A DNA stretch of 51,358 nucleotides from Spirulina sp. (GTDB lineage Bacteria > Cyanobacteriota > Cyanobacteriia > Phormidesmidales > Phormidesmidaceae). This document shows positions 1 to 48,138 of this stretch, piece by piece. The notes beneath the pieces were generated by a model. The model searched no databases and was not told where the DNA came from. It saw nothing but the letters and a program-made list of their open reading frames with translations. Both the position numbers and the translations under genes were made by a program. Position 1 is the first letter of the stretch. Each line of letters begins with the position of its first letter. Location of the stretch: contig JBIPSI010000035.1 of assembly GCA_044070495.1 (NCBI GenBank), forward strand, positions 1 to 51,358, read 5' to 3'.

Positions 1-750
1 GCGGGCGAAGGTGTCACCCTCAACAACATTGGGGCGGTGTATCGCAACCTAGGGAGATACGAACAGGCACTGGGCTACTACACCGATGCCCTGGCCATTC
101 TTCAAGAAGTCGGTGATCGCGCGGGCGAGGGTGTCACCCTCAACAACATTGGGTTGGTGTACCGCAACCTGGGGCAGTACGAACAGGCGTTGGGCTACTA
201 CACCGATGCCCTGGCCATTGTTCAAGAAGTCGGCGATCGCGCGGGCGAAGGTGTCACCCTCAACAACATTGGGGTGGTGTACAACAGCCTAGGGCAGTAT
301 GAGCAGGCCCTAGGCTATTACACCGATGCTCTGGCCATTCATCAAACGGTTGGCGATCGTGCGGGCGAAGGCACCACCCTCAACAACATTGGGGCGGTGT
401 ATCGCGTCCTGGGGCAGTACGAACAGGCGCTCGTCTACTACACCGATGCCCTGGCCATTGTTCAAGAAGTCGGCGATAGCGCGGGCGAAGGGGCCAACCT
501 TAACAACATTGGGGAGGTGTATCGCGTCCTGGGGCAGTACGAACAGGCGCTCGTCTACTACACCGATGCTCTGGCCATTCATCAAACGGTTGGCGATCGC
601 GCTGGCGAAGGTGTCACCCTCAACAACATTGGGGCGGTGTATGAAAACCTGGGGCAGTACGAACAGGCGCTGGGCTACTTCACCGATGCCCTCACTATTC
701 TTCAAGAGGTAGGTGATCGCAGTGGTGAATGCACCACCCTCAACAACATC
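1..750 (+). repeat. ~6 tandem 120-bp TPR-coding repeats
   Basis: Lines at 1, 121, 241, 361, 481, 601 are near-identical (gcgggcgaaggtgtcaccctcaacaacattggg). Confidence 0.95.
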
Positions 751-2583: not shown

Positions 2584-3347
2584 ATGCACAATCCATTTCC
2601 GGGCATGAACCCCTATCTAGAACAACCCGGGTTGTGGCCCCAGATACACAATCGCCTGATTGTAGCGATCGCCGATGACATTACCCCCAGGTTGCCCCCA
2701 GGTATCGCGTTTCAATCGAAGAGCGAGTTTACGCCAGCACCGAAGCCATGCCGCTGATTGGCATTGCTGACGTGGCGGTTACACGCCGTCCCGCCGCTGC
2801 TGCCTCTACAACAACCGCTGTGCAAGCGATCGCGCCCAGGCGGGTGCAGGTGCCGTTGCCCATGGAGGTGACGGAGCGCTTTTTAGCCGTGCGGCTGGTG
2901 CAGACCAATGAGGTAGCGTGCGTCATCGAGATCCTGTCTCCGGCCAATAAGCGATCGGGCGATGGCCGCCGGGCCTATGAGACGAAGCGCCAAACGGTTT
3001 TGGGTTCGGCTACCAACCTGGTGGAAATTGATCTGCTGCGCGGCGGTGCGGGTATGGCTGTGGCAGAACCGCCCCAAAAGACCTACAGCATTTTGGTCAG
3101 CGCCAGTGGCGATCGCCCCAATGCCGAACTCTATGAGTTTGATCTGGCAGATGCGATCCCGAGCTTCCCGGTGCCGTTGCAGCCCCATGATGCGGTTCCG
3201 GTGGTGAACTTGCAGCGGCTGTTGAACGAGGTTTATGCCCGCGCTCGGTTTGATCTGGCAATCAACTACCATCAACCACTCCAGCCTGCACTATCTAGCG
3301 AGGAGACCGCCTGGGTGCAGAGTCTGGTGGCTGCTGGGGAGCAATAG
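2584..3347 (+). pseudogene. DUF4058-family protein with a 1-nt frameshift (or sequencing error)
   Basis: ATG 2584 gives MHNPFPGMNPYLEQPGLWPQIHNRLI (DUF4058-like N-terminus); one C missing in the C-run at 2684-2688; continues in the frame of ORF 2748-3347 (IEILSPANK, NLVEIDLLRGG). Confidence 0.8.
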
Positions 3348-3402
3348 CGGTTTGGCTGGGCCGGGGCGATTGACTGGCGGGGAAAGGAAATTTGTCTAAA
3401 GG

Positions 3403-3429
3403 TGAATAAGTGGCCCCGGCCCGGAGATA
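3403..3429 (+). promoter_or_regulatory. Island promoter motif copy (TGAATAAG-N11-CGGAGATA)
   Basis: 63 nt upstream of ATG 3466; same spacing as other copies. Confidence 0.7.
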
Positions 3430-3465
3430 TATAGTGATGTCACCCCCAGACGGAGCATTGCCCCC

Positions 3466-6400
3466 ATGCGATATTCACCGAAGTGGTTGGGTTTAGTCGC
3501 GCTGACGACGATTATGGTGCCCTTTGCCCAGAACCCAGGGTTCTCCAAAGAACCCTGGGTTCTGATGCCCCCCGACAAAACCTCGCTGCTGTCGCTCAAA
3601 ACTGCCGAGGTTGTCGCCCCAGGTACCCGGGGCAAACAGGCTGATGGCGCTGCCTTGCTGTTGCAGGTGGAGGGCATGTTAGAAGATGGCGACAGCGTTT
3701 TGGATGATGGCCGCCTATACGATACCTATACCTTTGAAGGGCAGACGGCCCAAACTATTGCAATAACACTAGAAAGTCTTGATTTTGATACTTATGTTGC
3801 CTTACTTGACCAGAAAGGAAATCTGATTACTAGTAATGATGATATTGATACTAGTGCAGGTAATTACCATTCATTTATTGAAGTTAATCTGTCTAGAAAT
3901 GGCGTCTATCATGTCTTAGTAAGTAGCGCTAACTCTTCCTCTCGTGGACAGTATCGACTAGTTGTGGCAGAGGCCACCCCAGGGCAAGCAAGACCAATGT
4001 TAAGTTCAGCAGCCCTGACGCAGTTAGAAGTTTTGAGGCTAATTTCTTTGGCCTTGTCTAGCCATGAGTCTGCATTGTCAAGAGATGAATTTCAGCACGC
4101 ACTTGAATATGCACAACAAGGTCTTGCTCGTGCCCAAGACATTCAAGACATTAGGCTTGAGGGGTATAGCTTATACGTCATAGGACAGCTTTACACCGAT
4201 GGGTTCAGCAGATATCAAGAAGCACTTGAGGTTTTAGAGAGGGCGTTTGACATTTCCGAACAGATAAATGATCCAAGTCTAGCTACAGTGTCTCTTTTGA
4301 GTTTAAGCTTAGTCCATGTGCATCTTGGCAATCATCAAGAAACTATAAGCCTCTTTAATCAGGCGTCAGTTTTTGCCGAAGAGATTAACGATGAAAGTAT
4401 AGAAGCCCTTTTGTACATTCCTGCCTATGCTCATGTGTTCTTAGGAAATTATCAAGAGGCTATTCAAGTTCTAGAGGTGGGTCTTTCTAGTGCCCGGAAA
4501 TATAATCTTCATAGGCCAGAATCGCACTCTTTAGGTATTTTGGGTTTAGCATACTTGTATCTTGGAGATTACGATAAGGCTCGTGATTTTGCAGAGCAAT
4601 CTTTAGCTATTGCAGAAGAAAATCAAGATCTCATTGTGCAATCTAATCCATTATTTGTCTTAGGAGCAGTCTATATCCATCTAAGTCAATACCAAAGAGG
4701 AATTGATTTTGCAGAAAGATCGGTTCAAATTTCTCGAGAGGCTGGAATAGATCAAATTAGAATTTGGGGCCTTATTACATTAGCATCAGGCTATGTCGGC
4801 CTTGATCGTCATGAGGAAGCAGTTAATATCTCTAATGAGGCACTTCAACTTGCGCGCGAGTTGGGAGATAAAAAAAGCGAAGCAAATGCCCTGAGAATTT
4901 TAGGTCACAGCTCCGGTTTGAGAGGTGAGTATCAAGAAGCTATCAACTATTATCAACGGGCTCTTCCCTTATCTCAGGAGGCTGGAGATCGTAACTCAGA
5001 AGGGTTTCTTTTTGGTGCTTTAGGGCAAATTTTATCTCAGCAAAACCAGCCCGAACTGGCCGTTACCTTCCTCAAGGCCTCAGTCCAAGTGCGCGAATCC
5101 ATTCGCGGCGACATTCGTGGTCTCGACTCTAGCCTTCAGCAATCCTTTACCGATACCGTTGCCGACGACTACCGCCGCCTAGCCAATTTGCTGCTCAACC
5201 AAGGCCGCATTCCCGAAGCCCAGCAAGTCCTCGACCTATTGCAGCTCGAAGAACTGCGGGAGTTCACCAACACCCGCGCCGCCTGGACTGGCACCGCCCT
5301 AGCCTTTACCGATCCCGAGCAAACCGTCATCGACGCCCACGGCAGTCTGATCGCCCTGGGCAGCCGCATCCTCGACTGTGAGGCCACCAACTGCGCCGAC
5401 CTTGAGGCCTACTACGGCCAGCAGGAAGCCCTCAAAGCCCAGTACGATAACCAGGTGGCCGAATTCAACCGCATCGTCCGGGCCAACCGGGCCGACGACG
5501 ACGTGTTTCAAAACCCTGAAACCATCAGCGGCGAAGCGGAGGAATTGCTGGCGGCCTATGCCGAAGCCGGGGAAACAGCAGTGCTGATCTACCCCTTTGT
5601 GCTGGAAGACAAACTGTGGCTGGTGTGGGCCACGGCGGGCAACGTCATCGGCAGTGTGGAAGTACCTGTACCCCAGGCAGAGCTATCGGCCACGGTGCAG
5701 CGATTTGGGGAACTGCTGAACCGGGGGGCGCTGGATGACCTCCAAGCCACCAGTCAGCAGCTCTACGGCTGGATCATTGAACCGTTGGAAGCAGAGCTAG
5801 AAAAAAATGGCGTTGACCACCTAATTTTCGTTAACGATCGCGTCACTCGCTACATCCCCATGGCGGCATTGTTCGATGGCGAAAACTTTTTGATTGAGCG
5901 CTACCGAGTCTCCACGGTGCTGGCCCCCGCCGTCACCGAAACCGACGGACGGCTGGGGGCGGTGGATGAATCCCAGGTGCTGGGGCTGGGGCTGACCCAG
6001 GCGGTAGCAGGGCTCAACCCACTGCCAGCGGTGAAGGAAGAACTGGCGGCGATCGTGCGGGACAACCGCCTGGGGTCAGGCATCTTTCCAGGGCGGGTGT
6101 TCCTCGACAATGCCTTCACCTTCGATGCCCTGCGGGACAACGTGGCCAGCCATCGGGTGCTGCACGTAGCCACCCACGCCGCCTTTGTGCCCGGTCGTGC
6201 CGAAGAATCGTACATTGTGCTGGGCAACGGCGATCGCCTCTTCATTCCCGACATCGAAACCATCGAGCGCCGCCTGCGCAACCTGCACCTGGTGGTGCTC
6301 TCCGCCTGCCAAACCGCCCTGGGTGGCCCATCTGGCAATGGCGACGGCACCGAAATCGCGGGTCTCAGCTCCTACTTCCTCCGCCCTGGACGGGCCGAAG

Positions 6401-6675
6401 CAGTCGTCGCCTCGCTGTGGAAGGTTGACGACAGCAGTACCAGCCTGCTGATGCAGCGCTTCTACGAGTTCTTGGCCACAGGCGAACTCACCAAAGCCGA
6501 GGCCCTGCGCCAGGCGCAGCTCAGCCTGCTCTACAACGAAGACACCGCCACCCGCCTCGCCGCTTCCCGCGCCTCGATATCGGTTGAAACCCTCGACGGC
6601 AGACCACTCTCAGCGGTGGGCTCCCAACACCCCTACCACTGGGCACCGTTTATTCTGATCGGCAATGGCCTGTAG
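3466..6675 (+). CDS. Secreted PPC-TPR-CHAT protease
   Basis: N-terminal hydrophobic leader; PPC-like domain (YTFEGQTAQTIAITLESLDFDTY..NDD); divergent TPRs; CHAT HVATHA/VLSACQT. Confidence 0.9.
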   Translation: MRYSPKWLGLVALTTIMVPFAQNPGFSKEPWVLMPPDKTSLLSLKTAEVVAPGTRGKQADGAALLLQVEGMLEDGDSVLDDGRLYDTYTFEGQTAQTIAITLESLDFDTYVALLDQKGNLITSNDDIDTSAGNYHSFIEVNLSRNGVYHVLVSSANSSSRGQYRLVVAEATPGQARPMLSSAALTQLEVLRLISLALSSHESALSRDEFQHALEYAQQGLARAQDIQDIRLEGYSLYVIGQLYTDGFSRYQEALEVLERAFDISEQINDPSLATVSLLSLSLVHVHLGNHQETISLFNQASVFAEEINDESIEALLYIPAYAHVFLGNYQEAIQVLEVGLSSARKYNLHRPESHSLGILGLAYLYLGDYDKARDFAEQSLAIAEENQDLIVQSNPLFVLGAVYIHLSQYQRGIDFAERSVQISREAGIDQIRIWGLITLASGYVGLDRHEEAVNISNEALQLARELGDKKSEANALRILGHSSGLRGEYQEAINYYQRALPLSQEAGDRNSEGFLFGALGQILSQQNQPELAVTFLKASVQVRESIRGDIRGLDSSLQQSFTDTVADDYRRLANLLLNQGRIPEAQQVLDLLQLEELREFTNTRAAWTGTALAFTDPEQTVIDAHGSLIALGSRILDCEATNCADLEAYYGQQEALKAQYDNQVAEFNRIVRANRADDDVFQNPETISGEAEELLAAYAEAGETAVLIYPFVLEDKLWLVWATAGNVIGSVEVPVPQAELSATVQRFGELLNRGALDDLQATSQQLYGWIIEPLEAELEKNGVDHLIFVNDRVTRYIPMAALFDGENFLIERYRVSTVLAPAVTETDGRLGAVDESQVLGLGLTQAVAGLNPLPAVKEELAAIVRDNRLGSGIFPGRVFLDNAFTFDALRDNVASHRVLHVATHAAFVPGRAEESYIVLGNGDRLFIPDIETIERRLRNLHLVVLSACQTALGGPSGNGDGTEIAGLSSYFLRPGRAEAVVASLWKVDDSSTSLLMQRFYEFLATGELTKAEALRQAQLSLLYNEDTATRLAASRASISVETLDGRPLSAVGSQHPYHWAPFILIGNGL

Positions 6676-6688: not shown

Positions 6689-6715
6689 TGAATAAGCTTT
6701 CTCCTCTCAGGTCGA
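6689..6715 (+). promoter_or_regulatory. Island promoter motif copy (TGAATAAG-N11-CAGGTCGA)
   Basis: 66 nt upstream of ATG 6755; second half degenerate. Confidence 0.5.
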
Positions 6716-6754: not shown

Positions 6755-8278
6755 ATGCCTCTTCATCAAAAGTTTGGTGAGCGTCCCATTTCTGGCCCTA
6801 TGGCTTTCGTCAGCTTGGCGGCATCTACGCTGCTGCTAGCCCCTGCCACCCCGGCGCAGGATCTCATCGCCGGTAGCAATACCTCAGAAACAGACATCAG
6901 GCTGACACCTGAAGAAGTGCAGGTTCAGCAACAGTTCGAGAGTGCCATCCTCCTGGGTCAAGAACTTGCGGCTTTGGAACAAATCCCCACCGCCGAACGA
7001 ACCCCCGAGCAAGAGCAACGCATCTTAGCGCTCCGCCAAGCCCAGTCCGAGCTATCCAGAGCCTTTGCTAACTTTGCCAACTCTCCCGAGATTCAGGCAC
7101 AGCTTAATCAACTGCGTAGATCAACCCAGGGGCAAGCTCTGGAACTAAACGACCTACGCGCCATCCAGGACAACCTGGCGCAGCTAGACACCCCAGCCCT
7201 GCTTCTCTACCCGCTCATTCTGGATGATCGCTTAGAGTTGATGGTTGTCACCGCCGATGCTCCCCCCCTGCGCCGCACCGTTGAGGTGACCTCTACAGAG
7301 CTAAACCAGACCATCATGGCGTTCCGAGAGGCGTTGCAAGATCCTGGCAGCGATGTTTTGCCCCCAGCCCAGCAGCTTTACCAGTGGCTCATTCAGCCCA
7401 TTGATGCCGACCTGGCAGAGGCTGGGGCAGAGGCGATTTTGGTTGCTCCCGATGGAGCGCTACGCTATGTGCCCCTGGCCGCTTTGCACGATGGTGACCA
7501 ATGGCTGGCAGAGCGATTTGCCCTCAACACTCTCATTGCCGCCGGTCTAATGGACTGGTCAACCAATAATCCTCGTCCTGAGCCTCAAATTCTCGCTGCC
7601 GCCCTGTCTGAAGGCCCCTATGCCGTTATCGTTGGCGATCAGGAGGTGGTTCTCTCACCCATTCCGGGAGCGGTGGCCGAAGTAGAGGCTGTGGCGACGA
7701 TTTTCCCCAGCACGACGATCCTCATGGGAGCCGCCTTTACCCCCGAAGTGATCGCGCAACGGGCTAACCACTACGACATTCTCCACCTGGCTACCCACAC
7801 CCTAGTTCAGCCGGGTTCTCCGGAAGATTCGTTTATGCTGTTTGGCAATGGCGAAGTATTAACGCTCGGAGACTTTCGCACCTGGAACTTGGCCAATGTG
7901 GAGCTGGTAGTGCTGAGTGGGGGGGATACCGGGGTAGGGGTTCAGTTGGGCGATGGCACTGAGATATTAGGGATGGGCTATGAATTTCAGCAGGCAGGGG
8001 CCAGGGCGGTGATGGCGTCCCTCTGGAATGTGTCAGATTTTGGCACCACAGAACTGATGACAGCGTTTTACACCTCCCTCAGCCAGGGGAACTCCTTTGC
8101 AGAGGCACTGCAACAGGCCCAGATCTCACTAATTTCGTCTGTCCCCGAGTTGACCCGGCATCATCAAAAGGCCAGCGTGATGATCGAGTCCCCAAGTGAG
8201 GCGGTAGAGCCGCAGGCCGCCAACTATAGCCACCCCTACTACTGGGCACCGTTTATTTTGATCGGCAATGGCCTTTAG
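6755..8278 (+). CDS. TPR-less CHAT domain protein, catalytic Cys absent (pseudoprotease)
   Basis: Signal-like N-terminus; CHAT motifs PDGALRYVPLAAL, HLATHT, WAPFILIG; VLSGGDT replaces VLSACET. Confidence 0.88.
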   Translation: MPLHQKFGERPISGPMAFVSLAASTLLLAPATPAQDLIAGSNTSETDIRLTPEEVQVQQQFESAILLGQELAALEQIPTAERTPEQEQRILALRQAQSELSRAFANFANSPEIQAQLNQLRRSTQGQALELNDLRAIQDNLAQLDTPALLLYPLILDDRLELMVVTADAPPLRRTVEVTSTELNQTIMAFREALQDPGSDVLPPAQQLYQWLIQPIDADLAEAGAEAILVAPDGALRYVPLAALHDGDQWLAERFALNTLIAAGLMDWSTNNPRPEPQILAAALSEGPYAVIVGDQEVVLSPIPGAVAEVEAVATIFPSTTILMGAAFTPEVIAQRANHYDILHLATHTLVQPGSPEDSFMLFGNGEVLTLGDFRTWNLANVELVVLSGGDTGVGVQLGDGTEILGMGYEFQQAGARAVMASLWNVSDFGTTELMTAFYTSLSQGNSFAEALQQAQISLISSVPELTRHHQKASVMIESPSEAVEPQAANYSHPYYWAPFILIGNGL

Positions 8279-8396: not shown

Positions 8397-8423
8397 TGAA
8401 TAAGTTCCCAGGGGTCAGCCATA
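8397..8423 (+). promoter_or_regulatory. Island promoter motif copy upstream of the sigma-like gene (TGAATAAG-N11-CAGCCATA)
   Basis: 98 nt upstream of ATG 8495; near-consensus. Confidence 0.7.
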
Positions 8424-8494: not shown

Positions 8495-9841
8495 ATGGAT
8501 ACTGCTTCCCGCTATTGGCAACTGGTGCGCCTGACGAGTTCAGGTCAGTGCCAGGTGCAGATGCTCCCCCAGGTAAAAGCCTGGTTTCAGGCCACCATCG
8601 CCCCTGCCCCCGATACTGATTGGGCGCAGATGATCTTTCTGGCCTGGGCAGCAGGTGGCCCCGAGGCGGATCTGGCGCAGCTTAGCCTGCGGTGCTTCAT
8701 CAGCTACCAGATTCAGCAGGTGTGTCTGGGGTTGGCCCAGCGGTTTGGGCGAGACTATGGCTTTGCCGCCACCGACCTGTTTTACCTGGTGCTGGATGAC
8801 GATGGGCGCAAGGCCGATACCCCGCCGCCCTTTAGCCTAGAGATTTTGACCACCTACGACCCCGCCAAAGCCGCCCTTAGCACCTGGGCCAGTCGGCGCA
8901 CCAGCCATCACCCGGCCCTGAACCAGGCGCTTTTGGAAAAAGGACTCTATCGCGCCAGCGACTGGGCCATTTTGAACGATACCCAGCCCGGACAACTCCA
9001 GCGAATCCTGCGCCAGTACCACCTATGCAGCGAGTACGAAGTGGCCCAGGCCGCCACCCTGCTAGAGCGCTATCAGCAGGTCTACCAACGGGCGCGGATT
9101 GCCCAGCGATTGAGTGGACAACGGGGCCGCTGCCAAACTCCCACCGTCGAGCAACTGCGGGCCATCAACCCCGACCTATCGCCCAAAGACGTGCTGGCCC
9201 AACTGCGCCACCTGGCTGGGCAACTGCGGCAATATCGCGTCCATGTGCGGGGCGGGCCAGCCCCGGTCTACCAAAGCGACAACCTCGACTGGGAAACGGT
9301 GGCCACCACCCAAGCCAGCCAGCCCCCCGACCTAGGCGACGACGACCATGATGAGTTTTTGCAAGCCTACCGCCAAGCCATGGTGAAGGAGTTAGCGGGC
9401 GCAATCGCTGTCGTCATCCAGGCCAATGTGGATCGGCTGCGAGGCCGTAAGCCTCCCCAGGATCGGGCCTATGTCCAAGGGCTGCACCTGTTCCACTGCC
9501 AGGGGCTACCCATGGGCAAGTTCGCCGCCGACATTGGCCTCACCTCCCAGGTGCAGGTGAATCGCTTGCTCAACCTCAAGCGCCTGCGGTCGGAGGTGCG
9601 TCATCGGCTGCTACCCCAGCTTTACGAAACCGTGCAGCGTCAGGCCATGGCCTACGTCTCCGCCGACCGCTTGCAGGCCATCGACCAAACCCTAGAAACC
9701 TTGCTGGCCGAAGAGGTGGATACCCTGATCGCCGCCGCCGCCGCCGAAGCCCAACAACCCAAGGGCCGCACCGCCAACAGCCTGTTTGCCCAACAACTCT
9801 GCACTACCATTCATTCCTTTATGCCGGGTACCGAGTCATGA
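8495..9841 (+). CDS. Divergent sigma70-like / HTH regulator (putative alternative sigma factor)
   Basis: YDPAKAALSTWASRR resembles sigma region 2.3-2.4; PTVEQLRAI resembles region 3; LFHCQGLPMGKFAADIGLTSQVQVNRLL resembles the region 4.2 HTH. CDS is certain, function is inferred. Confidence 0.6.
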   Translation: MDTASRYWQLVRLTSSGQCQVQMLPQVKAWFQATIAPAPDTDWAQMIFLAWAAGGPEADLAQLSLRCFISYQIQQVCLGLAQRFGRDYGFAATDLFYLVLDDDGRKADTPPPFSLEILTTYDPAKAALSTWASRRTSHHPALNQALLEKGLYRASDWAILNDTQPGQLQRILRQYHLCSEYEVAQAATLLERYQQVYQRARIAQRLSGQRGRCQTPTVEQLRAINPDLSPKDVLAQLRHLAGQLRQYRVHVRGGPAPVYQSDNLDWETVATTQASQPPDLGDDDHDEFLQAYRQAMVKELAGAIAVVIQANVDRLRGRKPPQDRAYVQGLHLFHCQGLPMGKFAADIGLTSQVQVNRLLNLKRLRSEVRHRLLPQLYETVQRQAMAYVSADRLQAIDQTLETLLAEEVDTLIAAAAAEAQQPKGRTANSLFAQQLCTTIHSFMPGTES

Positions 9842-23624: not shown

Positions 23625-23660
23625 TATAGTAATGTCACCCCCAGATGGAGCATTGCCCCC

Positions 23661-36831: not shown

Positions 36832-36867
36832 TATGGTGATGTCACCCCTAGATGGATTATTGCCCCC

Positions 36868-39800: not shown

Positions 39801-40068
39801 GCTGTGGAAAGTGAGCGACCAGGGCACCCAGGTCTTGATGGGGGCGTTTTATGATGCCCTAGGCCAAGGCATGACCAAGGGCCAAGCGCTTCAAGCGGCC
39901 CAGCAGGCGCTAATTACGGGCGATTTTTCGGCAGTGGGGGGCGCACGGGCCACGGGGGAATTGGTCGAGATCGCCACGGGTCAGCCGCTACAGGGGAGTG
40001 AATCCGGTGACTCCTTAGCACACCCCTACTTTTGGGCACCGTTTATCCTGATTGGCAATGGGCTGTAG
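36868..40068 (+). CDS. Secreted TPR-CHAT protease
   Basis: Shared leader MRQAAKWLGLIA; ~10-11 TPRs; HLATHG/VLSACET/WAPFILIG. Confidence 0.93.
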   Translation: MRQAAKWLGLIALTTVMVPFTEIPGFLKGTGGLMSTAIAQTDSATARLNRANHLYSNEAFQLWNSGQLEGAFDLLLQALELYRHPEVRAAFPRESYLGESRTLTGLGAVSRLLERYEQALSYYADALALSREFDDRPGEDTILNNIGVVHNSLGQYEQALAYYTEALAIRQATGNRAGEGITLFNMGATHNSLRQYEQALEHYAASLAIRQDLGDRAAIGDTLNSIAEVYDSLEQYEQAIAYYIESLAIYQAVSNRTGEGMALTSIGVAYRNLGQYEQALAYYTDALAIARSISSRTGESTVLDNIGVVYRALGQYEQALGYYTNALNIRQEIGDRAGAAATLRNIGVVYSNLGQYEQAMTFLANALGIFQDIDDRKSEGTTIISVGALYAHLGQDEQALTSYTDALAIFRAIGDRSGESAALNGIGAAYQYLRRYEEALTYYTDALAIRQAIGDRSGEGTTLNNIAALYYVQGQYEQALASYTAALAIAQNIGNRSSEGTTLNNIGRVLEALGELELAIVFYKQSVNVRESIRGDIRGLDTDLQQSFTDTVAPTYRQLADLLLQQNRILEAQRVLDLLKVQELDDALRGIRSTSDTSGGVAFWQMETDLLALYNQVIADADELTQLQSADYDSLSPAQQQRLQDLRQRNADVQSRFTAFLDLPEVQQLLAQIRQETEGENLDIENQHRALQNNLRALPQKTALLYPLILPDRLELVLVTADGPPLRYPIAVGGAELNRAIVAFGQALKDPSSDIQPLAQQLYGWLVAPLEDALAQAGIESLLYAPDGALRYVPLAALHDGDQYLAQRFSLSQITAVSLSNLNQVPDPDQRRLLAAACAECSFTVTVGDRAFAFEDLPYTEPEVKALAEQMPNTRVLLNQGFSRQELENRLGSYSIIHLATHGAVVENAPRQSFVVLGSGEHVTLEDIRQGWNLNRAELVVLSACETAVGSTELGSGVEILGLGYQIQEAGAMGVLASLWKVSDQGTQVLMGAFYDALGQGMTKGQALQAAQQALITGDFSAVGGARATGELVEIATGQPLQGSESGDSLAHPYFWAPFILIGNGL

Positions 40069-40148: not shown

Positions 40149-40868
40149 ATGACCCTGGCCAAAGAACCCAGTACCTCGGTGATCGCCCCTGACGATCCGT
40201 CCCCAACGGCGGCATCCCCATCTGGGCAGGCGGTGGTGTTTCCCCCTGGCGACCTCTATAGCGATGAACCCCCCTTGGAAACCGATCTCCACCGCGACCA
40301 GATTGACCTCCTGATTCGCCTACTCCGATCCCTCTGGCATGACCGCCAAGACTTCTACGTTTCTGGCAACACCACCATCTACTACAGCCCCAAACAGCGA
40401 AAGTCTGAGGATTTTCGAGGGCCGGACTTTTTTGTGGTGCTGGGTACCGAGCGTCGTCCCCGCAAAAGTTGGGTGGTGTGGGAGGAAGAGGGCAAGTATC
40501 CCCATGTGATTATTGAGCTGCTGTCGGACTCCACCGCCCAGACTGACCGGGGGCTGAAGAAGCAACTCTACCAAGACACCTTCCGCACACCGGATTACTT
40601 TTGGTTTGACCCCCACAGTCTGGAGTTTGAGGGGTTTCATCTGGTGGATGGCACCTATCGCCCCCTAGAGGCCAATGAGCAGGGCTGGCGCTGGAGTGAG
40701 CAACTGGGGCTGTACCTGGGCATTCACGAGAACCAACTGCGCTTTTTTACCCCAGAAGGTGCCCTAGTGCCCAGCCCAGAGGAATCCGCAGTCGCCGCGC
40801 ACCAACGGAGTGAGAAGCTAGCCGCCAAGCTCCGGGAGTTGGGAATTGACCCTGATGAGATTTCCTAG
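40149..40868 (+). CDS. Uma2 (DUF820)-family endonuclease-like protein
   Basis: SDEPPLETDLH, FRGPDFFVV, VIIELLSDSTA, DYFWFDP typical of cyanobacterial Uma2. Confidence 0.9.
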   Translation: MTLAKEPSTSVIAPDDPSPTAASPSGQAVVFPPGDLYSDEPPLETDLHRDQIDLLIRLLRSLWHDRQDFYVSGNTTIYYSPKQRKSEDFRGPDFFVVLGTERRPRKSWVVWEEEGKYPHVIIELLSDSTAQTDRGLKKQLYQDTFRTPDYFWFDPHSLEFEGFHLVDGTYRPLEANEQGWRWSEQLGLYLGIHENQLRFFTPEGALVPSPEESAVAAHQRSEKLAAKLRELGIDPDEIS

Positions 40869-41415: not shown

Positions 41416-41546
41416 GAAAGATTAGCTAAAGCTGAATAAGTCGCCTGGAGCAGGACATATATAGTAATGTCACCCTTAGATGGAGCATTGCCCCCATGGG
41501 ACAGGCTGCAAAGTGGTTGGGTTTGCTGGCGCTGACGATAATCTAA
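41416..41546 (+). pseudogene. Orphan CHAT promoter and leader (direct repeat of 41893-42016)
   Basis: Motif at 41433-41459; ATG 41496 gives MGQAAKWLGLLALTII*. Confidence 0.85.
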
Positions 41547-41624
41547 GTGATGGATATTGACCAAATTCAGGCAAAGGTGAAGGCCGATGAGTATGTCTAT
41601 ACCTCCCATGGGATCCTAAACCCT

Positions 41625-41873
41625 ATGAGCGAGAAGCGATGCACGACCTGCGGCAGTAGCGACTACGAAACGCGGCAGATTACCTATCTATATAGTCACC
41701 AGGGCCAGTATTTGATTGTGCCCAATACCCCGGTGGAAGTGTGCCAACACTGTGGGACGACTTACTATCGTGCGGCGGTGTTGAAGCAAATCGAGCAGCA
41801 GTTTTTTGATATCTACAGCGATGCCATGGCCCCGGACGACTATCTTCAGGTGCCGATGAAGGCGTTTGGATGA
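41625..41873 (+). CDS. YgiT/MqsA-type zinc-finger antitoxin-like protein
   Basis: CTTCG...IVPNTPVEVCQHCGTTYY; preceded in frame by a DUF4258-like stub (MDIDQIQAKVKADEYVYTSH, from 41547). Confidence 0.8.
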   Translation: MSEKRCTTCGSSDYETRQITYLYSHQGQYLIVPNTPVEVCQHCGTTYYRAAVLKQIEQQFFDIYSDAMAPDDYLQVPMKAFG

Positions 41874-41909
41874 TGGATCAAGGATGGTTAGCGAAAGATT
41901 ACCTAAACC

Positions 41910-41936
41910 TGAATAAGTCGTCTGGGGCAGGACATA
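41910..41936 (+). promoter_or_regulatory. Island promoter motif copy (TGAATAAG-N11-AGGACATA)
   Basis: 64 nt upstream of ATG 41974. Confidence 0.7.
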
Positions 41937-41973
41937 TATAGTGATGTCACCCTCTAGATGGAGCATTGCCCCC

Positions 41974-44574
41974 ATGCGACAGGCTGCAAAGTGGTTGGGT
42001 TTGGTTGCCCTAACGACTGTACTGGTGCCCTTTGCCGAGATTCCCGGTTTCTTTAAAGAAACCGGGAATCTGATGCCCGCTGCGATGGCCCAGAGTGCCG
42101 AGGATCGCTTAGCTGAGGTAGATCGCTTGCTCGATCTGGGTATTGAACAAGCCCAAGTGAGCCAGTTTTGGGAGGCGCTACAATCCTGGCAGGAAGCGCT
42201 GGAAATTTGCCGCGAGATTGGCTACCGGGGTGGAGAAGGGAGGGTGCTGGGGAATTTAGGCCTTGCGTACAACAGCCTGGGAGATTATCGCCGCGCTATT
42301 GACTTCCATGAGCAAAGTCTGTTGATCGCCCGTGAGATTGGTGATCGCCAAGGAGAAGGAATTGCCCTAGTCAGTTTAGGCACTACCTTTGTTGACCTCG
42401 GCCAATATCGACATGCCATTGACTTTTTCTATCAGCAAGGTCTAAGTATTATTCGCGAGCTTGGCAACCAACAATGGGAAGGAAGCATTCTGGGTAATTT
42501 GGGTATTGCTTATCATCGGCTTGGTCAATATCAAAGCGCTATTGACCTTTATTGGAAGCATCTGGCTATTGCCCGCGAGGTTGGTGATCACCAGGGAGAA
42601 GGAATTGCACTGGGCCATTTGGGCGTAGCTTACGCTGATCTTGGTCAATATGAACGCGCCATTGACTTCTATAGGCAACATCTGACCATTGTCCGCACGA
42701 TTGGTGATCATCAAGGAGAAGGAAATGTTCTAGGCAATTTGGGAAATGCCTACACTAAGCTCGGCCAACATCAACGTGCGGTTGACCTTTATCAGCGAAG
42801 TCTTGTGATTGCCCGTGAGATTGCTGATCGACAAGGGGAAGGCAGTACGTTGGGTAACTTGGGTCTTGTTTATGCTTATCTTGGTCAATATCAATATGCC
42901 ATTGAATTCTATCAGCAGCATTTGGCTATTGCCCGTGAGATTGGTGATCGAGAAGGGGAAGGAAACACGCTGAATAACTTGGGTCTTGCTTACAACTATC
43001 TTGGAGACTATCGCCAAGCCATTGGGTTCTATGAGCAAGCTCTGGCCATCGCCCGCGACATTCAGAATCGCCTTGGCGAAGGACTTGCCCTGAGCAACTT
43101 GGGCTTGACTTATTCAAATACAGAACGATTCGCCCTGGCAGAAACAGCCTTAGCCCAAGCCCTGGATATCTGGGACGCTCTCAGAGACTCAGACCTGCCC
43201 GACGCCGACAAAATTTCCCTCTTTGAAACCCAGCGCAACTCGTTTCTGCTGCTTCAGCGGGTACTGGTTGCCCAGGATAAAGTTGGCCCAGCCCTAGAAG
43301 TGGCCGAACGGGGGCGAGGCCGAGCCTTTGCGGAACTCCTCTCCCAGCGCCTTTCATCCGAGGACGCTGTGCTAGACGCGGCACCACCTCAGCTAAGCGA
43401 CATTAAAGCCCTAGCCCAGGAACAACAAACGACCCTGATCACCTATTCGGTGATCCGTTTCACCGATGAAGATGATGATGATGGCGTACTTCACATTTGG
43501 GTGGTTTCGCCCACGGGCGACCTCACCTTTCGCCGCCAACCCCTAGATGGCGTTGACCTATCCAGCCTCGTTACCACCGCCCGCCAGTCCCTGGGTGTGC
43601 GCGGCGACCGCTTGGCCACCGCCATCGTGGAACTCACCCCCGAAGCCCTGGCCCGCCAACAGGCCGAAACCGAAGCCAACCTCCGCCAGCTCTACGATGT
43701 GCTGATTGCCCCCATTGCCGACCTGCTGCCTGCTGACCCCACGCAGCCTGTGGTTTTCATGCCTCAAGATGAGTTGTTTTTGGTGCCCTTCGCTGCCCTC
43801 AAAGCGCCCGATGATCAATACCTGATTGAAAACCACACCATCCTCACGTCTCCCTCGATTCAGGTGTTTGGGCTGGCGACGGAGGCCAAAGCCGCTACGG
43901 TACGGGCCAACGGCGGTTCATCGGCGACCCGTAACCCCCTGATTGTGGGCAACCCCACCATGCCCAGCGTCACCTTTCTCAGCGAGGGCGGCAGCTTCCA
44001 GGATGTGCAGCTCAGTTCCCTACCCGGTGCCCAGCGAGAGGCCGAGGCGATTTCGGGCTTTCTACAAACCCCGGCCCTGTTGGGCAGTGCGGCCACCAAA
44101 ACAGCGGTGCAGCAACGCATGGCCGAGGCCGATGTGATTCACTTGGCCACCCACGGTTTGCTGGAGTATGGCGACCCGCAACAAACCGGGACGCGGGATT
44201 TGCCCGGTGCCATTGCCCTCGCCCCCGGCAGTGGGGAGGATGGCCTACTAACGGCAGCGGAAATTTTGCAGATGGACTTGCGGGCCGACCTAGCTGTACT
44301 GAGTGCCTGCGACACCGGGCGGGGACGCATTACGGGGGATGGGGTGATTGGCCTCTCCCGTGCCTTTGTGGCGGCGGGGGTGCCCAGCATCATCGTGTCC
44401 CTCTGGGCGGTGGATGACCAGGCCACCGCAGACCTGATGGTGGCCTTTTACGACCATTGGCAACAGAGCGGCGACAAGGCCCAGGCCTTGCGACAGGCCA
44501 TGCTCACCACCATGGAGACCCACCCCGACCCGCGCCTGTGGTCAGCCTTTACGTTGATTGGTTCCCCCAATTAA
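41974..44574 (+). CDS. Secreted TPR-CHAT protease (paralog of 23661-27092)
   Basis: Start set by the shared leader MRQAAKWLGLVA; ~7 TPRs; HLATHG/LSACDT. Confidence 0.93.
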   Translation: MRQAAKWLGLVALTTVLVPFAEIPGFFKETGNLMPAAMAQSAEDRLAEVDRLLDLGIEQAQVSQFWEALQSWQEALEICREIGYRGGEGRVLGNLGLAYNSLGDYRRAIDFHEQSLLIAREIGDRQGEGIALVSLGTTFVDLGQYRHAIDFFYQQGLSIIRELGNQQWEGSILGNLGIAYHRLGQYQSAIDLYWKHLAIAREVGDHQGEGIALGHLGVAYADLGQYERAIDFYRQHLTIVRTIGDHQGEGNVLGNLGNAYTKLGQHQRAVDLYQRSLVIAREIADRQGEGSTLGNLGLVYAYLGQYQYAIEFYQQHLAIAREIGDREGEGNTLNNLGLAYNYLGDYRQAIGFYEQALAIARDIQNRLGEGLALSNLGLTYSNTERFALAETALAQALDIWDALRDSDLPDADKISLFETQRNSFLLLQRVLVAQDKVGPALEVAERGRGRAFAELLSQRLSSEDAVLDAAPPQLSDIKALAQEQQTTLITYSVIRFTDEDDDDGVLHIWVVSPTGDLTFRRQPLDGVDLSSLVTTARQSLGVRGDRLATAIVELTPEALARQQAETEANLRQLYDVLIAPIADLLPADPTQPVVFMPQDELFLVPFAALKAPDDQYLIENHTILTSPSIQVFGLATEAKAATVRANGGSSATRNPLIVGNPTMPSVTFLSEGGSFQDVQLSSLPGAQREAEAISGFLQTPALLGSAATKTAVQQRMAEADVIHLATHGLLEYGDPQQTGTRDLPGAIALAPGSGEDGLLTAAEILQMDLRADLAVLSACDTGRGRITGDGVIGLSRAFVAAGVPSIIVSLWAVDDQATADLMVAFYDHWQQSGDKAQALRQAMLTTMETHPDPRLWSAFTLIGSPN

Positions 44575-44638: not shown

Positions 44639-44665
44639 TGTATAAGTTCCTTTGCGTCAGACATA
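44639..44665 (+). promoter_or_regulatory. Island promoter motif copy (TGTATAAG-N11-CAGACATA)
   Basis: 62 nt upstream of ATG 44701. Confidence 0.7.
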
Positions 44666-44700: not shown

Positions 44701-45693
44701 ATGAAACGACTGTCTTTGTCTAAGCTGTCCTTTTTCAAAGCAGCAGGGCTAATGGCCACGAGTGCGGCATTGATTGCCACCCCCCTCTCAGTTCAAGCGG
44801 GTTCCGCTGTGCTGGAGGTGTTCACCCAGGCCCAGCACACCGCCGCCGAGAAAGTTCGCGCCTTTGGCTTAGTTCCCAATCTCGAACCCCATATCCCAGC
44901 GGATTTGAGTCAATCGCAGAATCCGACCGCGCAGGATGCTGATGGAGGTGGTCGGGGCATTATCGGCCTCAGCGATGATCGCACGCCGATGACCAGCCGT
45001 AGCTATCCCTGGTCGGCGATTGGGCGGCTGCAAAGCCCGATAGATAGCACCACCATTACCATCTGTAGCGGTACTCTGGTGGCCCCAGATATCGTCCTCA
45101 CCAATGCCCACTGTGTGATTAACCCCGAAACCAGCGAAATCAAGCCGAATATCACCTTTCATCCCAACATGATCGAGGGCCGTGTGGCCGACCCCAGCCA
45201 CATTGCCCAGGCCGTAGATCTGATCTATGGCACCGATTTTTACAACGACAACCGCGCCCCCCACCCCCAGGATTGGGCCTTCGTCAAGCTGGATCGACCC
45301 CTAGGCGATACCTATGGCACCCTGGCCTGGACATCCCTCTCCGTGGGCGACCTGGTGCGTAATCACCGCAACCAAATCATCACCGCTGGCTACTCTGGGG
45401 ATTTTCCTGCCGAGGCACCGGGGCGCACCGCTGGTGTTCACCTGGGCTGCAATGTGCTGGGCGAAGTGGAAGGTAGCCTGATCCACGACTGCGATACCCA
45501 CCCCGGATCCTCCGGTGGCCCGATGATGACCCTCATCAACGGTGAGTACCGGATTGTGGGCATCAATTCCGCCGAACGCACCGAACGCGCCACCAACCCC
45601 ACCACGGGCGAAGTCATCGCCAGCCAAGGAATCGTCAACTACGGAGTCAAAATTCAGCCCATCATCGACTTTATCCGTCAGGCCCAGCGGTAG
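44701..45693 (+). CDS. Secreted trypsin-like (S1, V8-like) serine protease
   Basis: Signal peptide; LTNAHC, QDWAFVKL, PGSSGGP; propeptide ends at GGGR-GIIG. Confidence 0.9.
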   Translation: MKRLSLSKLSFFKAAGLMATSAALIATPLSVQAGSAVLEVFTQAQHTAAEKVRAFGLVPNLEPHIPADLSQSQNPTAQDADGGGRGIIGLSDDRTPMTSRSYPWSAIGRLQSPIDSTTITICSGTLVAPDIVLTNAHCVINPETSEIKPNITFHPNMIEGRVADPSHIAQAVDLIYGTDFYNDNRAPHPQDWAFVKLDRPLGDTYGTLAWTSLSVGDLVRNHRNQIITAGYSGDFPAEAPGRTAGVHLGCNVLGEVEGSLIHDCDTHPGSSGGPMMTLINGEYRIVGINSAERTERATNPTTGEVIASQGIVNYGVKIQPIIDFIRQAQR

Positions 45694-45825: not shown

Positions 45826-48138
45826 ATGCCCCCTATCAAACGTCGTCACTTCTTACAGGCCGCCGGATCGAGCCTAGCCGCCATTGGCCTCAGCCAGACG
45901 GGCTTTTTGCGTCAGGCCCAGCAGTACAACCGCGCCCTAGCCCAAACCACGCCTCGCAAGCTGGCCCTGCTGGTGGGCATTAACCAATACAGCGCCTTCA
46001 ACATCAGCGACCTAAACGGCTGCGTCCGGGATGTTGAGATGCAGTACGAGCTACTGGTGCATCGCTACGGCTTCAACCCCAGGGACATTGTGATGGTCAC
46101 GGATGGCTCTGGTCTGCCGCCCACGCGGGCCAACATTCTGCAAGCCTTTGAGGAACATTTGATTGCCCAGGCTCGCCCCGGCGATGTAGTGGTCTTTCAT
46201 TACTCCGGTCATGGGTCGCGAGTGCAGGATCCCGACCCGATTGTGGTGAGCCAGTGCGGCCCCAATAGCAATCCCAACGGCATCAACGGCACCCTCGTCC
46301 CTGGAGACGCCACCTTCACCTCCATCAGCGACACGGAGCGGGTGGTGACGGACATTATGGGCCGCAGCTTATTTTTGCTGACCCAGCGCATCCAGACCGA
46401 CCATGTGTGCATGGTGCTAGACAGTTGTTTTTCGGGGGCGGGCACTCGCGGCAATGCCCAGGTGAGATCCGCCACCAGTTCCCGCCAAAGCGATGGAACG
46501 AGGGTACTTCGACCTAGTGAAGCCGAACTGGAGATGCAGGCCCGATGGAAGCAGGATTTGGGCCTAGAACTCGATACCTTTAACCGTCGCCGATCCGAGG
46601 GCATCGCCAAGGGGATGGCCATCGGATCCGCCAGTTGCGACCAAGAAGCCTACGAACTCCCCTTTGACACCGATGTCATCGCCGGAGCCTTCACCTATCT
46701 GCTGACCAGCTACCTATGGCAATCTCCCGTTGTGGAACCCGCCCGCACCACGCAGATTAACCTCGTCCGCAGCACCCGCCTCGCCGCCCAGAGTCGAGGT
46801 ACCCAGGTGCCCATTTTTGAGGCCGCTCCCGGCAGTGATGTCCTGGCTCAGCCGCTGTACTTCGCCAATGCCCTAGCCCCCTTTGCGGAAGGTGCGGTGC
46901 TCAGCGTCATCGATAACCAAATTGAACTGTGGCTGGGGGGGATGTCGGAACACACCCTCGCAACCGCCCAACCGGGAAGTGTCTATGCCCTGATCGATCC
47001 CACCACATCCCAGGAGATGGGCGACGTTGAGCTAGAGTCACGCACGGGGCTGCGAGCCATTGCCCGTCCGGTGGGATCCGTCAATGCCCGCCCAGGGCTG
47101 CTGGTGCGCGAAAAGGTCGCCGCCCTCACCCTGCCCAATCTGCGGGTTGGGATTGATCCCTCCCTGGCTGATGAAGAGCAAGTGGCCACCACCGCCCTCA
47201 CCAGCGCCCTCAGCGCCAGCAACGGCGACAGTCGCGTCACGGTGCTGCCCCTGGATCAACAGAGCAATGTGGCCTACGTGCTGGCCCGTACCGATGCCGA
47301 CACCCAAGCCCGTCTGCGTCAGGCTGGAATCCCCGCTGAACATCTCCCTGCCGTGGGTTCCATCGCCCTCTACTCAGCAGATTTATCCACCGTAGTACTA
47401 GGCACCGCTGGAGGAGCCGTGAACGAAACCGCAGCGGCGGCGGTGCTACGCCTGCGGCCACGCCTGCGAGGCTTACTGGCGGCCCAGGTGCTGCAATCCT
47501 TGGCCGGACTCTCATCAGACTTGCGCGTCAGCGGTGAGATTGTCCCCCGCAGTGGTCGGGGTGGCACAGTGCCCTTCGCCAGCCGAGGAGCCAGGGGTCA
47601 GGGGGGCGTGCGCACACAGATTGCCCCTGCTACCTACCAATCCCAAGAACTTATTGATGTTCGTATCACCAATGAGGAAAGCACCCCCGTCTATGTGGCC
47701 TGTCTCATCATCGACAGCAGCGGCAACTTTATCACCCTCCACCCCGCCCGCTGGGATGCCCCCGACCTGGCTTCCGAAATTGCCCCCGGTGAGTCCCTAG
47801 TGGTGCCTCGGGCCGAGGATGGGGTTCAGTTTCGGGTCAGCGGTTCGGGCTTTTTGGAAATCCTCACCATTGTGAGCCAGGCTCCGCTGCGGGGGCTACT
47901 CCGCAATATGCAAGCCATCGCTAGCCGAGATGGGCGAACTGACCCCACCCGTGGCGCTGTACGTTTTGGCGACGGTGCAGGCGACCACCTCAATATGCTA
48001 GATGACCTGCTGGGGGATGTAGATACCCTCTCCCGCAGCCGCGCTACGGTGATGGTAGAAAACGTAGACAGCCGCAACACAGCGGTTGAATCAGGCGCGA
48101 TTGCCGCCTTTTCCACCATCCTCGAAATTGTGGAGTAG
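45826..48138 (+). CDS. Tat-signal caspase-like (C14) protease with C-terminal DUF4384-like domain
   Basis: IKRRHFLQ twin-Arg leader; KLALLVGINQY; HYSGHG; LDSCFSG (dyad intact); VYVACLIIDSSGNFITLHP. Confidence 0.9.
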   Translation: MPPIKRRHFLQAAGSSLAAIGLSQTGFLRQAQQYNRALAQTTPRKLALLVGINQYSAFNISDLNGCVRDVEMQYELLVHRYGFNPRDIVMVTDGSGLPPTRANILQAFEEHLIAQARPGDVVVFHYSGHGSRVQDPDPIVVSQCGPNSNPNGINGTLVPGDATFTSISDTERVVTDIMGRSLFLLTQRIQTDHVCMVLDSCFSGAGTRGNAQVRSATSSRQSDGTRVLRPSEAELEMQARWKQDLGLELDTFNRRRSEGIAKGMAIGSASCDQEAYELPFDTDVIAGAFTYLLTSYLWQSPVVEPARTTQINLVRSTRLAAQSRGTQVPIFEAAPGSDVLAQPLYFANALAPFAEGAVLSVIDNQIELWLGGMSEHTLATAQPGSVYALIDPTTSQEMGDVELESRTGLRAIARPVGSVNARPGLLVREKVAALTLPNLRVGIDPSLADEEQVATTALTSALSASNGDSRVTVLPLDQQSNVAYVLARTDADTQARLRQAGIPAEHLPAVGSIALYSADLSTVVLGTAGGAVNETAAAAVLRLRPRLRGLLAAQVLQSLAGLSSDLRVSGEIVPRSGRGGTVPFASRGARGQGGVRTQIAPATYQSQELIDVRITNEESTPVYVACLIIDSSGNFITLHPARWDAPDLASEIAPGESLVVPRAEDGVQFRVSGSGFLEILTIVSQAPLRGLLRNMQAIASRDGRTDPTRGAVRFGDGAGDHLNMLDDLLGDVDTLSRSRATVMVENVDSRNTAVESGAIAAFSTILEIVE

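Follow-up and report, generated by a model that had tools for sequence, protein, structure and literature searches.

A conserved cyanobacterial sigma/DUF1822/receptor-caspase cassette, split by a large set of protease genes with a shared promoter-like motif, in Spirulina sp.

The DNA analysed here is the whole contig JBIPSI010000035.1 (51,358 bases; contig C35 of a 5.3-Mb cyanobacterial assembly, Spirulina sp., GCA_044070495.1), called the window below. It carries a sigma factor-like gene followed by a DUF1822 gene and, 22 kb further on, a gene for a membrane protein with CHAT and CHASE2 domains (receptor-caspase) followed by one for a secreted DUF928-like protein. Genes of peptidase families lie around and between these two pairs, and a promoter-like motif precedes the sigma gene and most of the island. 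Nearly all long open reading frames (ORFs) are on the plus strand, to which features given below without a strand belong, and the closest named relatives of the encoded proteins are from Leptolyngbya sp. BL0902 and Nodosilinea/Phormidium strains. An earlier note on this DNA had proposed an undescribed, sigma-controlled and sensor-triggered cascade of secreted proteases. We consider it rather probable that the window holds a copy of a signalling cassette conserved in cyanobacteria, accompanied by unusually many genes which it switches on.

The sigma-like gene (8495-9841) encodes a protein of 448 amino acids that is 90% identical to its counterpart in Leptolyngbya sp. BL0902. For the window protein AlphaFold2 gave a model with a predicted local distance difference test (pLDDT) score of 91, built on 65 homologues. 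In this model a sigma-2-like domain (residues ~14-152), preceded by an additional N-terminal beta-hairpin and helix (residues 1-40), is followed by a helical middle domain and a sigma-4-like helix-turn-helix (HTH, residues ~320-380); a loop at residues 258-276 is disordered. An exhaustive structure search (VIA) with the model had sigma factors in 13 of its 16 best rows, among them sigma32 (Z 7.5, over residues 5-371), RpoS region 2 (Z 7.2, root-mean-square deviation (rmsd) 3.2, 95 aligned), SigA domain 2 (Z 7.2, rmsd 3.0, 92 aligned) and several extracytoplasmic function (ECF) sigmas (Z 5.2-6.2). Taken alone, these Z values are only suggestive of a sigma fold; the family profile, run against PDB sequences, matched an HTH weakly (E 0.022), besides one unrelated hit. 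The decisive link was provided by hhalign, which aligned the profile of the window's sigma family with the sigma paralogue encoded on contig C16 of the same genome with a probability of 97.4% (E 1e-11) over 276 columns, among them those of the HTH. That paralogue is recognised by Pfam (Sigma70_r4, 5.5e-7; Sigma70_r2, 9.4e-4, the latter below that model's cut-off), and because of this alignment we accept the window protein as a very divergent member of the sigma-70 family.

The next gene (9838-11058) overlaps the stop of the sigma gene by 4 nt and is translationally coupled to it. Its product is a DUF1822 protein (PF08852; Pfam E 7.9e-32, 111.2 bits against a cut-off of 25). The sigma-like/DUF1822 pair of the earlier note is thus upheld on the DUF1822 side by Pfam and on the sigma side by fold and hhalign, although the latter protein has no Pfam or NCBIfam match. 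Modelling of the complex, which the same note had suggested, also came out in its favour: the score was 0.78 (0.78, 0.80 and 0.77 in the individual runs, with contact agreement of at least 56% and a partner pLDDT of at least 72), as compared to 0.01 for the best of three controls. Scores at this level are attained by 116 of 157 solved complexes, as well as by 2 of 215 mismatched pairs, a calibration which holds only roughly here, our own alignments having been supplied. The modelled interface is formed by residues 76-88, 133-167, 194-213 and 244-253 of the sigma and by residues 23-64, 111-117 and 141-147 of DUF1822, and it includes residues that are invariant or near-invariant in the two families (W157, Y197 and C213 of the sigma; W60, E143 and E144 of DUF1822). 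Binding between the predicted sigma and DUF1822 is supported by these models.

DUF1822 itself was modelled (pLDDT 86.5) as an N-terminal alpha/beta domain, a disordered linker (residues 219-234) and a C-terminal beta-sandwich. The best VIA matches of the N-terminal domain were PD-(D/E)xK nucleases (D212, Z 10.0, rmsd 3.7, 129 aligned). A TRADD-N-like fold was sought for the same domain, and no TRADD entry was among the VIA rows listed, which does not exclude a family that is not listed there. The near-invariant glutamate pair of the nuclease-like domain, E143/E144, falls inside the predicted sigma interface.

The receptor-caspase gene (32961-35360) lies in an ORF that opens at 32853, and its homologues begin at M37 (32961). 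Pfam recognised CHASE2 (1.3e-17) and CHAT (2.7e-9) in the product, and hydropathy located hydrophobic segments at residues 413-431, before CHASE2, and 782-810, after it. The layout is thus a cytoplasmic part, made up of a conserved N-terminal domain and the CHAT domain (H268, C312), then one transmembrane (TM) segment, CHASE2 and C-terminal TM segments. In approximate terms the cytoplasmic part takes up residues 37-410 and the CHASE2 ectodomain residues 432-757. Both the histidine (GHS) and the cysteine (NSC) of the dyad are at least 90% conserved in 57 homologues, which also have the conserved N-terminal domain.

The following gene (35347-36120), which starts 14 nt before the end of the receptor gene and is translationally coupled to it, encodes the DUF928-like secreted protein. 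Its former label, DUF928, could be kept only in part. No Pfam match was found for the window copy even at E<=10, and hhalign between its family and the bona fide DUF928 protein of the C16 cassette gave a probability of 23% (E 8.9e-4, 95 columns); but 11 of 35 homologues match PF06051 at E<=0.01 (two of the 35 above the cut-off), the gene stands, like its C16 counterpart, directly 3' of a CHAT-CHASE2 gene, and the two proteins have in common a leader and the motifs R-GG-x-SR-x-C, PG-x-Y-x-W and, C-terminally, W-x-(E/D)-AL. The protein would therefore be DUF928-like, only a remote relative of DUF928. Just after the leader its family has a near-invariant arginine five residues before a near-invariant cysteine (consensus GGSRxxxC). 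Elsewhere in the window, a 61-residue ORF at 15770-15955 shows similarity to the C-terminal third of the protein and probably represents a second copy in decay; a weak copy of the promoter-like motif (score 11.8) lies 5' of it, within 15635-15955.

Members of the sigma-like family were detected in 95 of 299 good Cyanobacteriia genomes, covering 54 of 149 genera, often in several copies. A locus search with the single sigma protein yielded just three close loci, and the survey was built instead from genome-wide matches: 80 regions of at most 20 kb, from the sigma-family matches listed, higher scores first and no more than three per genome, hence a non-random sample in which several regions are truncated by contig ends. 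Profile hidden Markov models detected DUF1822 with the sigma gene in 72 of these loci, the receptor-caspase with its conserved N-terminal domain, CHAT and CHASE2 in 65 (in 61 at a length of at least 600 residues), the DUF928-like gene in 43 and one or more additional CHAT genes in 35. In 64 loci the sigma gene has DUF1822 as well as the receptor-caspase beside it, and all four genes occur together in 43. The co-occurrence that had been predicted for them is therefore strongly conserved. The usual order, on one strand, is sigma, DUF1822, receptor-caspase, DUF928-like, and TPR-CHAT, C14, S8 and PPC genes are frequent flankers.

In the window the same order is kept on the same strand, with sigma and DUF1822 at 8.5-11 kb and the receptor and DUF928-like genes at 33-36 kb. 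To judge from its relatives, the 22-kb insert of protease and other regulon genes into the operon is a lineage-specific build-up, since in one close relative (L003) the two halves of the cassette are separated by just one TPR-CHAT gene, and a Nodosilinea genome (L002) resembles the window. The genome itself contains two more cassettes. One, on contig C12 (L086), is canonical, and its sigma is 58% identical to that of the window. The other, on C16, is recognisable by Pfam throughout (Sigma70_r4 5.5e-7, DUF1822 9.5e-72, CHAT-CHASE2, DUF928 2.4e-36). Near these paralogous cassettes we noted a gene for a 1040-residue protein with a Tubulin_2 domain (PF13809, 1.1e-70; L086:16849-19971), about 5 kb upstream of the C12 copy, and, after the C16 cassette with its sigma-70 r4/r2 protein (L090:5147-13678), a gene for a 988-residue protein with a two-partner-secretion TPS domain.

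A promoter-like motif was derived from k-mer counts in the 300-nt regions preceding 65 sigma genes, from which TGAATAAG/TGCATAAG emerged. It is bipartite, TGAATAAG-N12-AGnnATA (TGmATAAG-N12-AGnnATA), i.e. two blocks at a fixed spacing of 12 nt. A position weight matrix (PWM) scored at least 12 in 35 of the 65 regions, whereas the maximum over 325 shuffles was 10.8. Since these regions had trained the matrix, it is the scans of the genome, of the window and of the foreign loci that are independent tests. On both strands of the own genome there were 21 matches scoring at least 17 and 27 scoring at least 16, as against 2 and 5 in reversed or complemented controls; 12 of the 27 lie in the window and 5 at the C12 cassette, and other matches precede CHAT genes on contigs C11, C73 and C74. 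The shared motif claimed in the earlier note is real: the exact 8-mer TGAATAAG occurs 14 times in the window, with 0.97 expected, and none of 100 shuffles reached 14. The 80 foreign loci gave 125 matches scoring at least 15, with 2 in controls, and at least one such match was found in 56 of the loci. Sigma genes are preceded by 39 of the 125; of the other 86, 10 precede CHAT genes and 54 unlabelled ORFs, the latter mostly small and with hydrophobic leaders. A 22-mer common to the 5' regions of four CHAT genes had been considered as the motif as well, and was replaced by the shorter bipartite one, as it marks only that group of paralogues and one remnant. We also rejected gene duplication as the origin of the copies, except in the group of CHAT_b, CHAT_g, CHAT_h and the remnant: outside it the flanks are unrelated, so the copies in the window are not merely products of duplicated genes.

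A full motif stands 26-72 nt before the likely start of 12 window genes. At the left it precedes CHAT_b, a secreted PPC-TPR-CHAT protein (3466-6675; Pfam, leader, dyad alignment), at 3403-3429 (score 26.5), 36 nt before the start, and, in a weaker form at 6689-6715 (14.3), CHAT_c507, a CHAT protein of 507 residues with a leader (6755-8278; Pfam 5.3e-66, alignment). The copy 5' of the sigma gene (8397-8423, 27.0) has a position that is conserved in other genera. S8_a, a PPC-subtilase on the minus strand (12057-14561; ORF to 14636; Pfam, D/H/S motifs), has its copy at 14609-14635 (minus strand, 12.9), 48 nt before the likely start at 14561. A gene for a secreted TPR protein (14864-15586 by its putative start; Pfam TPR) follows a copy at 14805-14831 (21.9) with the -35 block TGAATAGG. 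The copy at 16027-16053 (20.8) precedes a gene for a small membrane-anchored protein with a C-terminal CxxC...CxxC and no family match (16091-16615), which heads C14_a, an orthocaspase-like protein with a twin-arginine leader (16671-17624; ORF from 16518; Pfam 9e-15).

Further to the right the motif is found before CHAT_d, a secreted (PPC)-TPR-CHAT protein (17753-21235; Pfam, alignment), at 17694-17720 (19.7); before S8_b, a secreted subtilase (21294-23453; Pfam 7.9e-44, triad by eye), at 21233-21259 (18.8); before CHAT_f, a secreted TPR-CHAT protein (29536-32877; Pfam, alignment), at 29459-29485 (16.5); before PPC152, a small secreted PPC-domain protein (36266-36724; Pfam PPC 9.5e-9), at 36194-36220 (24.9); before CHAT_h, a secreted TPR-CHAT protein (41974-44574; ORF from 41941; Pfam, alignment), at 41910-41936 (17.4); and before S1, a secreted trypsin-like peptidase (44701-45693; ORF from 44629; Pfam), at 44639-44665 (18.7), here with the -35 block TGTATAAG. 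Five more peptidase-family genes complete the set. These are CHAT_a, a TPR-CHAT gene that lost its 5' end at the contig end (1-2430; Pfam CHAT 8.7e-60, His and Cys motifs in the alignment), the secreted TPR-CHAT proteins CHAT_e (23661-27092; Pfam) and CHAT_g (36868-40068; Pfam), the subtilase S8_c (27337-29370, minus strand; ORF to 29502; Pfam 1.6e-42) and C14_b, an orthocaspase with a twin-arginine leader and DUF4384 (45826-48138; Pfam, HYSGHG and DSCFSG). The receptor gene, 84 nt after CHAT_f, may be read from the CHAT_f promoter.

Two additional motif copies have no such gene behind them. The thirteenth (27090-27116, score 17.0) overlaps the stop of CHAT_e with no ORF downstream; it aims into the 3' end of the minus-strand S8_c and may be a sigma-dependent antisense start. 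The fourteenth (41433) stands before the remnant of a gene: the CHAT_h promoter and roughly the first 17 codons of its leader recur 480 nt upstream of the original (41420-41540), where the copy ends in a stop. Between the two promoter copies there is a gene for a YgiT/MqsA-type zinc-finger protein (41547-41873), which looks like an insertion that duplicated a target of ~110 nt. A 184-nt block recurs in four CHAT genes (3391-3574, 23586-23769, 36793-36976 and 41899-42082; 62-77% identical to the first copy). It spans promoter, 5' untranslated region and leader peptide (MR..AKWLGLVALT..VPF...PGF), and the leader and the ~40 nt that directly precede the ATG hardly vary in the alignment. The -35 variant differs between the paralogous cassettes, four of the five C12 matches having TGAATAGG (AGG) and the window mainly TGAATAAG (AAG), a preference which may insulate the two sigmas from each other.

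The count of 15 protease or protease-like genes in the earlier note agrees with a Pfam scan of 27 window ORFs, which found eight soluble CHAT proteins (TPR arrays in seven, a PPC domain in three), one CHAT-CHASE2 protein, three S8, one S1 and two C14 proteins, besides DUF1822. CHAT genes are clustered, with 9 of the 23 genomic matches on this 51-kb contig, 1% of the genome. The Sec- or Tat-like leaders that had been ascribed to most of these proteins were seen, by eye, in 12 of the 14 that could be judged: Sec-like ones in seven soluble CHAT proteins, S8_b, S8_c and S1, and twin-arginine ones in C14_a and C14_b. No leader was evident in S8_a, and the truncated CHAT_a could not be judged. All nine CHAT proteins have a Pfam match and eight keep both His and Cys of the dyad; among the soluble ones the alignment shows the His motif in all eight and the Cys motif in seven. 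The exception is CHAT_c507, in which LSGGDT replaces the LSAC of its paralogues, with Gly in place of the catalytic Cys. In C14_a, a regex search and reading by eye found the His motif (FSGHT) and no D-x-C-x-SG Cys motif. Since the catalytic Cys is replaced in one and its motif not recognisable in the other, these two of the 15 are probably pseudo-proteases. The D/H/S motifs of the three S8 proteins and NAHC and GSSGGP of S1 were seen by eye. About 13 of the 15 thus look active and two look like pseudo-enzymes, for which the wording "protease or protease-like" was apt. Both pseudo-protease genes, 6755-8278 directly 5' of the sigma gene and 16671-17624, retain leaders and promoters, and their products may be regulators or decoys.

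How the cassette might work can be proposed as follows. DUF1822 would keep the sigma inactive. CHASE2, partnered in the periplasm by the DUF928-like protein, would receive a signal and so activate the cytoplasmic CHAT domain, which would then cut DUF1822, or the sigma itself, and set the sigma free. The freed sigma would raise its own expression together with that of the sensor and of the protease set, which amounts to a positive feedback. As the motif upstream of the sigma's own gene also precedes most genes of the island, the island is best explained, in line with the earlier note, as being turned on by this sigma, and motif evidence places the secreted proteases among its presumable outputs.

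Several observations weigh against the view of the window as a signalling cassette with its regulon. The window protein matched no Pfam or NCBIfam family at E<=0.01, and nothing relevant at E<=10. All VIA Z values of its model are below 8, a range in which chance matches are frequent for helical models, and Foldseek found nothing in the PDB at E<=0.001, although its weak rows were rich in sigma chains. On the sigma, the modelled contacts involve the sigma-2 and middle domains and leave the sigma-4-like region uncovered; the interface is therefore unlike a classical anti-sigma clamp. It must be noted that the PWM was trained on the sigma-upstream regions, where matches hold by construction, and that even so 30 of the 65 regions have no motif at a score of 12 or more. 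In the PWM scan of the window, S8_c and C14_b had no motif upstream, CHAT_e and CHAT_g had degenerate copies only (that of CHAT_g at 36805-36831, score 8.5), and the receptor gene had none within the 84 nt upstream of it. Eight of the 80 loci have sigma and DUF1822 with no receptor-caspase within 10 kb, and seven have none of the three partner genes; contig ends truncate some of the loci in these two groups. Finally, the support for a sigma that drives the island is computational throughout, and cleavage of DUF1822 by the CHAT domain is a step that we infer.

Some of these points would suit a different relation between the sigma and the motif, in which the motif is read by another sigma factor, or is the binding site of a regulator, and the sigma-like gene is a member of the regulon and not its driver. 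The link from sigma to motif was drawn from sequence, the window protein fails the Pfam sigma models, and the structural Z values are modest. However, the motif consists of two blocks at a fixed spacing that resemble a -35/-10 pair, it is concentrated at loci encoding the sigma family (the 56 of 80 foreign loci, and 17 of the 27 own-genome matches scoring at least 16, which lie at two such loci), and the window and C12 loci favour different -35 variants (AAG and AGG, respectively), and we give this explanation only a small chance. Of similarly low probability, in our estimate, is that the sigma itself is the substrate of the protease, like a pro-sigma, and that DUF1822 is an adaptor bringing it to CHAT and not an inhibitor. 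The extra N-terminal residues 1-40 and the disordered loop 258-276 of the sigma would be compatible with this, as would a modelled contact that leaves the sigma-4-like region free and a DUF1822 made of two folded domains with a disordered linker (219-234) between them; but no conserved cleavage motif was identified, and translational coupling and the conserved interface fit an inhibitor equally well.

Two further proposals concern the purpose of the system and the place of the proteases in it. A role against invaders or in programmed cell death, in which a threat would induce autoproteolysis of the receptor-caspase and the sigma would deploy variable effectors, here proteases, that harm the cell or its neighbours, was put forward in section 9 of Kaur et al. 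2021 (PMC8195603). The content of the regulon varies by genome, with small secreted proteins of no known family on C12 and at many loci and proteases here, and such variability is typical of conflict systems; the expansion of paralogues and the pseudo-enzymes also speak for it. On the other hand, the Pfam scan of the window revealed no surrounding phage or defence genes, and the effectors are exported, not cytoplasmic. We regard this role as unlikely, though less so than the other alternatives; it addresses what the system is for, and can hold alongside the signalling mechanism preferred here. The earlier note had gone further and made the secreted TPR/PPC proteases the sensors, which would cleave the DUF928-like protein into a ligand of CHASE2 in the manner of Toll/Spaetzle. 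The GGSRxxxC consensus just after the leader and the translational coupling of this gene to that of the sensor would agree with such a step, as orthocaspase and trypsin-like enzymes are expected to prefer basic residues. The motif, in contrast, puts the proteases downstream of the sigma, and they are not an obligatory input, because an extra CHAT gene within 10 kb is missing from 45 of the 80 loci, and a detectable DUF928-like gene from 37; we think it very improbable that the proteases are the sensors. Just as doubtful is the boldest version, a self-amplifying circuit across the envelope, in which secreted TPR-CHAT, orthocaspase, subtilase and trypsin-like proteases would cut the DUF928-like protein at GGSR, the product would act as a CHASE2 ligand, CHAT would cut DUF1822 and more sigma would be released, so that damage or invaders could be sensed along the filament. 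If true, it would be a bacterial counterpart of Toll/Spaetzle or complement-type cascades combined with a caspase-gated transcription switch.

It is instructive to compare the cassette of the window, read as a signalling system with its regulon, with systems that are already known. In classical ECF sigma/anti-sigma signalling (RseA/sigmaE) an autoregulated sigma is co-transcribed with its partner and is released by proteolysis in response to an envelope sensor. These features recur here, with a presumed proteolytic release step, but the sigma has 448 residues, with a sizeable middle domain, its partner is soluble and shows no relation to known anti-sigma domains, and the protease, a caspase-fold domain, is part of the receptor itself. 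In the type III-E Craspase system (Csx29/Csx30/CASP-sigma; bioRxiv 10.1101/2023.06.23.546230) a CHAT protease is likewise thought to release a sigma from its partner; there the trigger is target RNA and the partner Csx30/Csx31, whereas here they would be a membrane CHASE2 receptor and DUF1822. The genes associated with Craspase (gRAMP/Cas7-11, Csx30/Csx31) are not seen in the window, in which no Cas family matched any of the 27 ORFs scanned. The SAVED-CHAT to PCaspase cascade of Haliangium type III-B, treated in the same preprint, also ties a caspase-fold protease to other proteases and to a dedicated sigma. As presented there, it is cytoplasmic, triggered by cyclic oligoadenylate and demonstrated biochemically, whereas the proteases of the window are exported and their link to the sigma would be transcriptional. 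The cassette resembles these three and belongs to none of them. HetF of Anabaena, which acts on PatU3 (PMC9457339), is likewise a cyanobacterial caspase-fold (CHAT-type) protease with a specific regulatory substrate, but it is described there with a different architecture and in cell division and heterocyst formation, with no sigma factor involved. A metacaspase-CHASE2 protein of Trichodesmium has a cytoplasmic caspase fold and an extracellular CHASE2 with 1 + 3 TM helices (Asplund-Samuelsson et al. 2012, PMC3501461), a topology with which that of the window's receptor agrees; that account deals with the single protein and its topology, and not with partners or a regulon.

The closest precedent is the computational study of Kaur, Iyer, Burroughs and Aravind (eLife 2021, PMC8195603), which catalogues systems of an EACC2-caspase with an ECF sigma factor and DUF1822/TRADD-N proteins. 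Its receptors consist of a constant N-terminal EACC2 domain, a caspase and a variable C-terminus, including CHASE2 with TM helices, and its section 9 proposes that caspase activation by a stimulus leads to a sigma-driven response. An operon string in the supplement ends in "TM+beta_rich+TPRs" and "TPRs+CASPASE", which matches the DUF928-like and TPR-CHAT genes of the window. Domain architecture and logic are the same here, a constant N-terminal domain, a caspase fold and TM-CHASE2-TM beside a sigma gene and DUF1822; for the N-terminal domain, conserved among our homologues, identity with EACC2 is by architecture and not by profile comparison. As the core had thus been catalogued, the system is not undescribed, as the earlier note had it; it is known from computation, and that claim falls, while co-occurrence, the motif linking sigma and island, and the modelled binding stand. 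The passages of the paper on these systems give no promoter motif, regulon or sigma-DUF1822 interface, they label DUF1822 a TPR protein whereas our model has a nuclease-like alpha/beta domain and a beta-sandwich, and the operon is split in the window by 22 kb of regulon genes. What is new in the window is the split cassette with its exceptionally large protease regulon. Literature searches, in which subscription journals were outside coverage, found no experiment on the cassette or the motif; hits to TGAATAAG combined with cyanobacteria were, judged by title, primer coincidences.

The island span also includes genes unrelated to the system. Besides the YgiT-type gene, these are a DUF4058 gene (2748-3347) and a gene for a Uma2-family putative endonuclease (40149-40868), and a fragment of an IS701-family transposase (49988-50842) marks the right edge of the island. 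The repeats detected in a search of the window all encode TPRs or belong to the duplicated 5' regions of CHAT genes. The TPR arrays are tandem DNA repeats with a unit of 120 or 126 nt (1-900, 18200-19580, 23750-25730, 30100-31220, 37150-38415 and 42090-43180), the copies of which are 60-89% identical to a reference unit within and between genes. More TPR-CHAT genes preceded by the motif are carried by the short contigs C73 and C74, whose shortness is probably explained by such repeats; the island may therefore reach beyond the contig studied here.

The cassette occurs in about a third of the sampled cyanobacterial genomes, and the window makes its pathway testable in three ways, by a promoter motif before a dozen genes, which can serve as a read-out, by a predicted sigma-DUF1822 interface of residues that are invariant or near-invariant in both families, and as a natural amplified case, with 15 protease-family genes as the output. 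If the gating turns out to be proteolytic, the cassette would be an example outside CRISPR of a CHAT protease releasing a sigma factor, and would represent a new bacterial route by which a signal is carried from the envelope to RNA polymerase.

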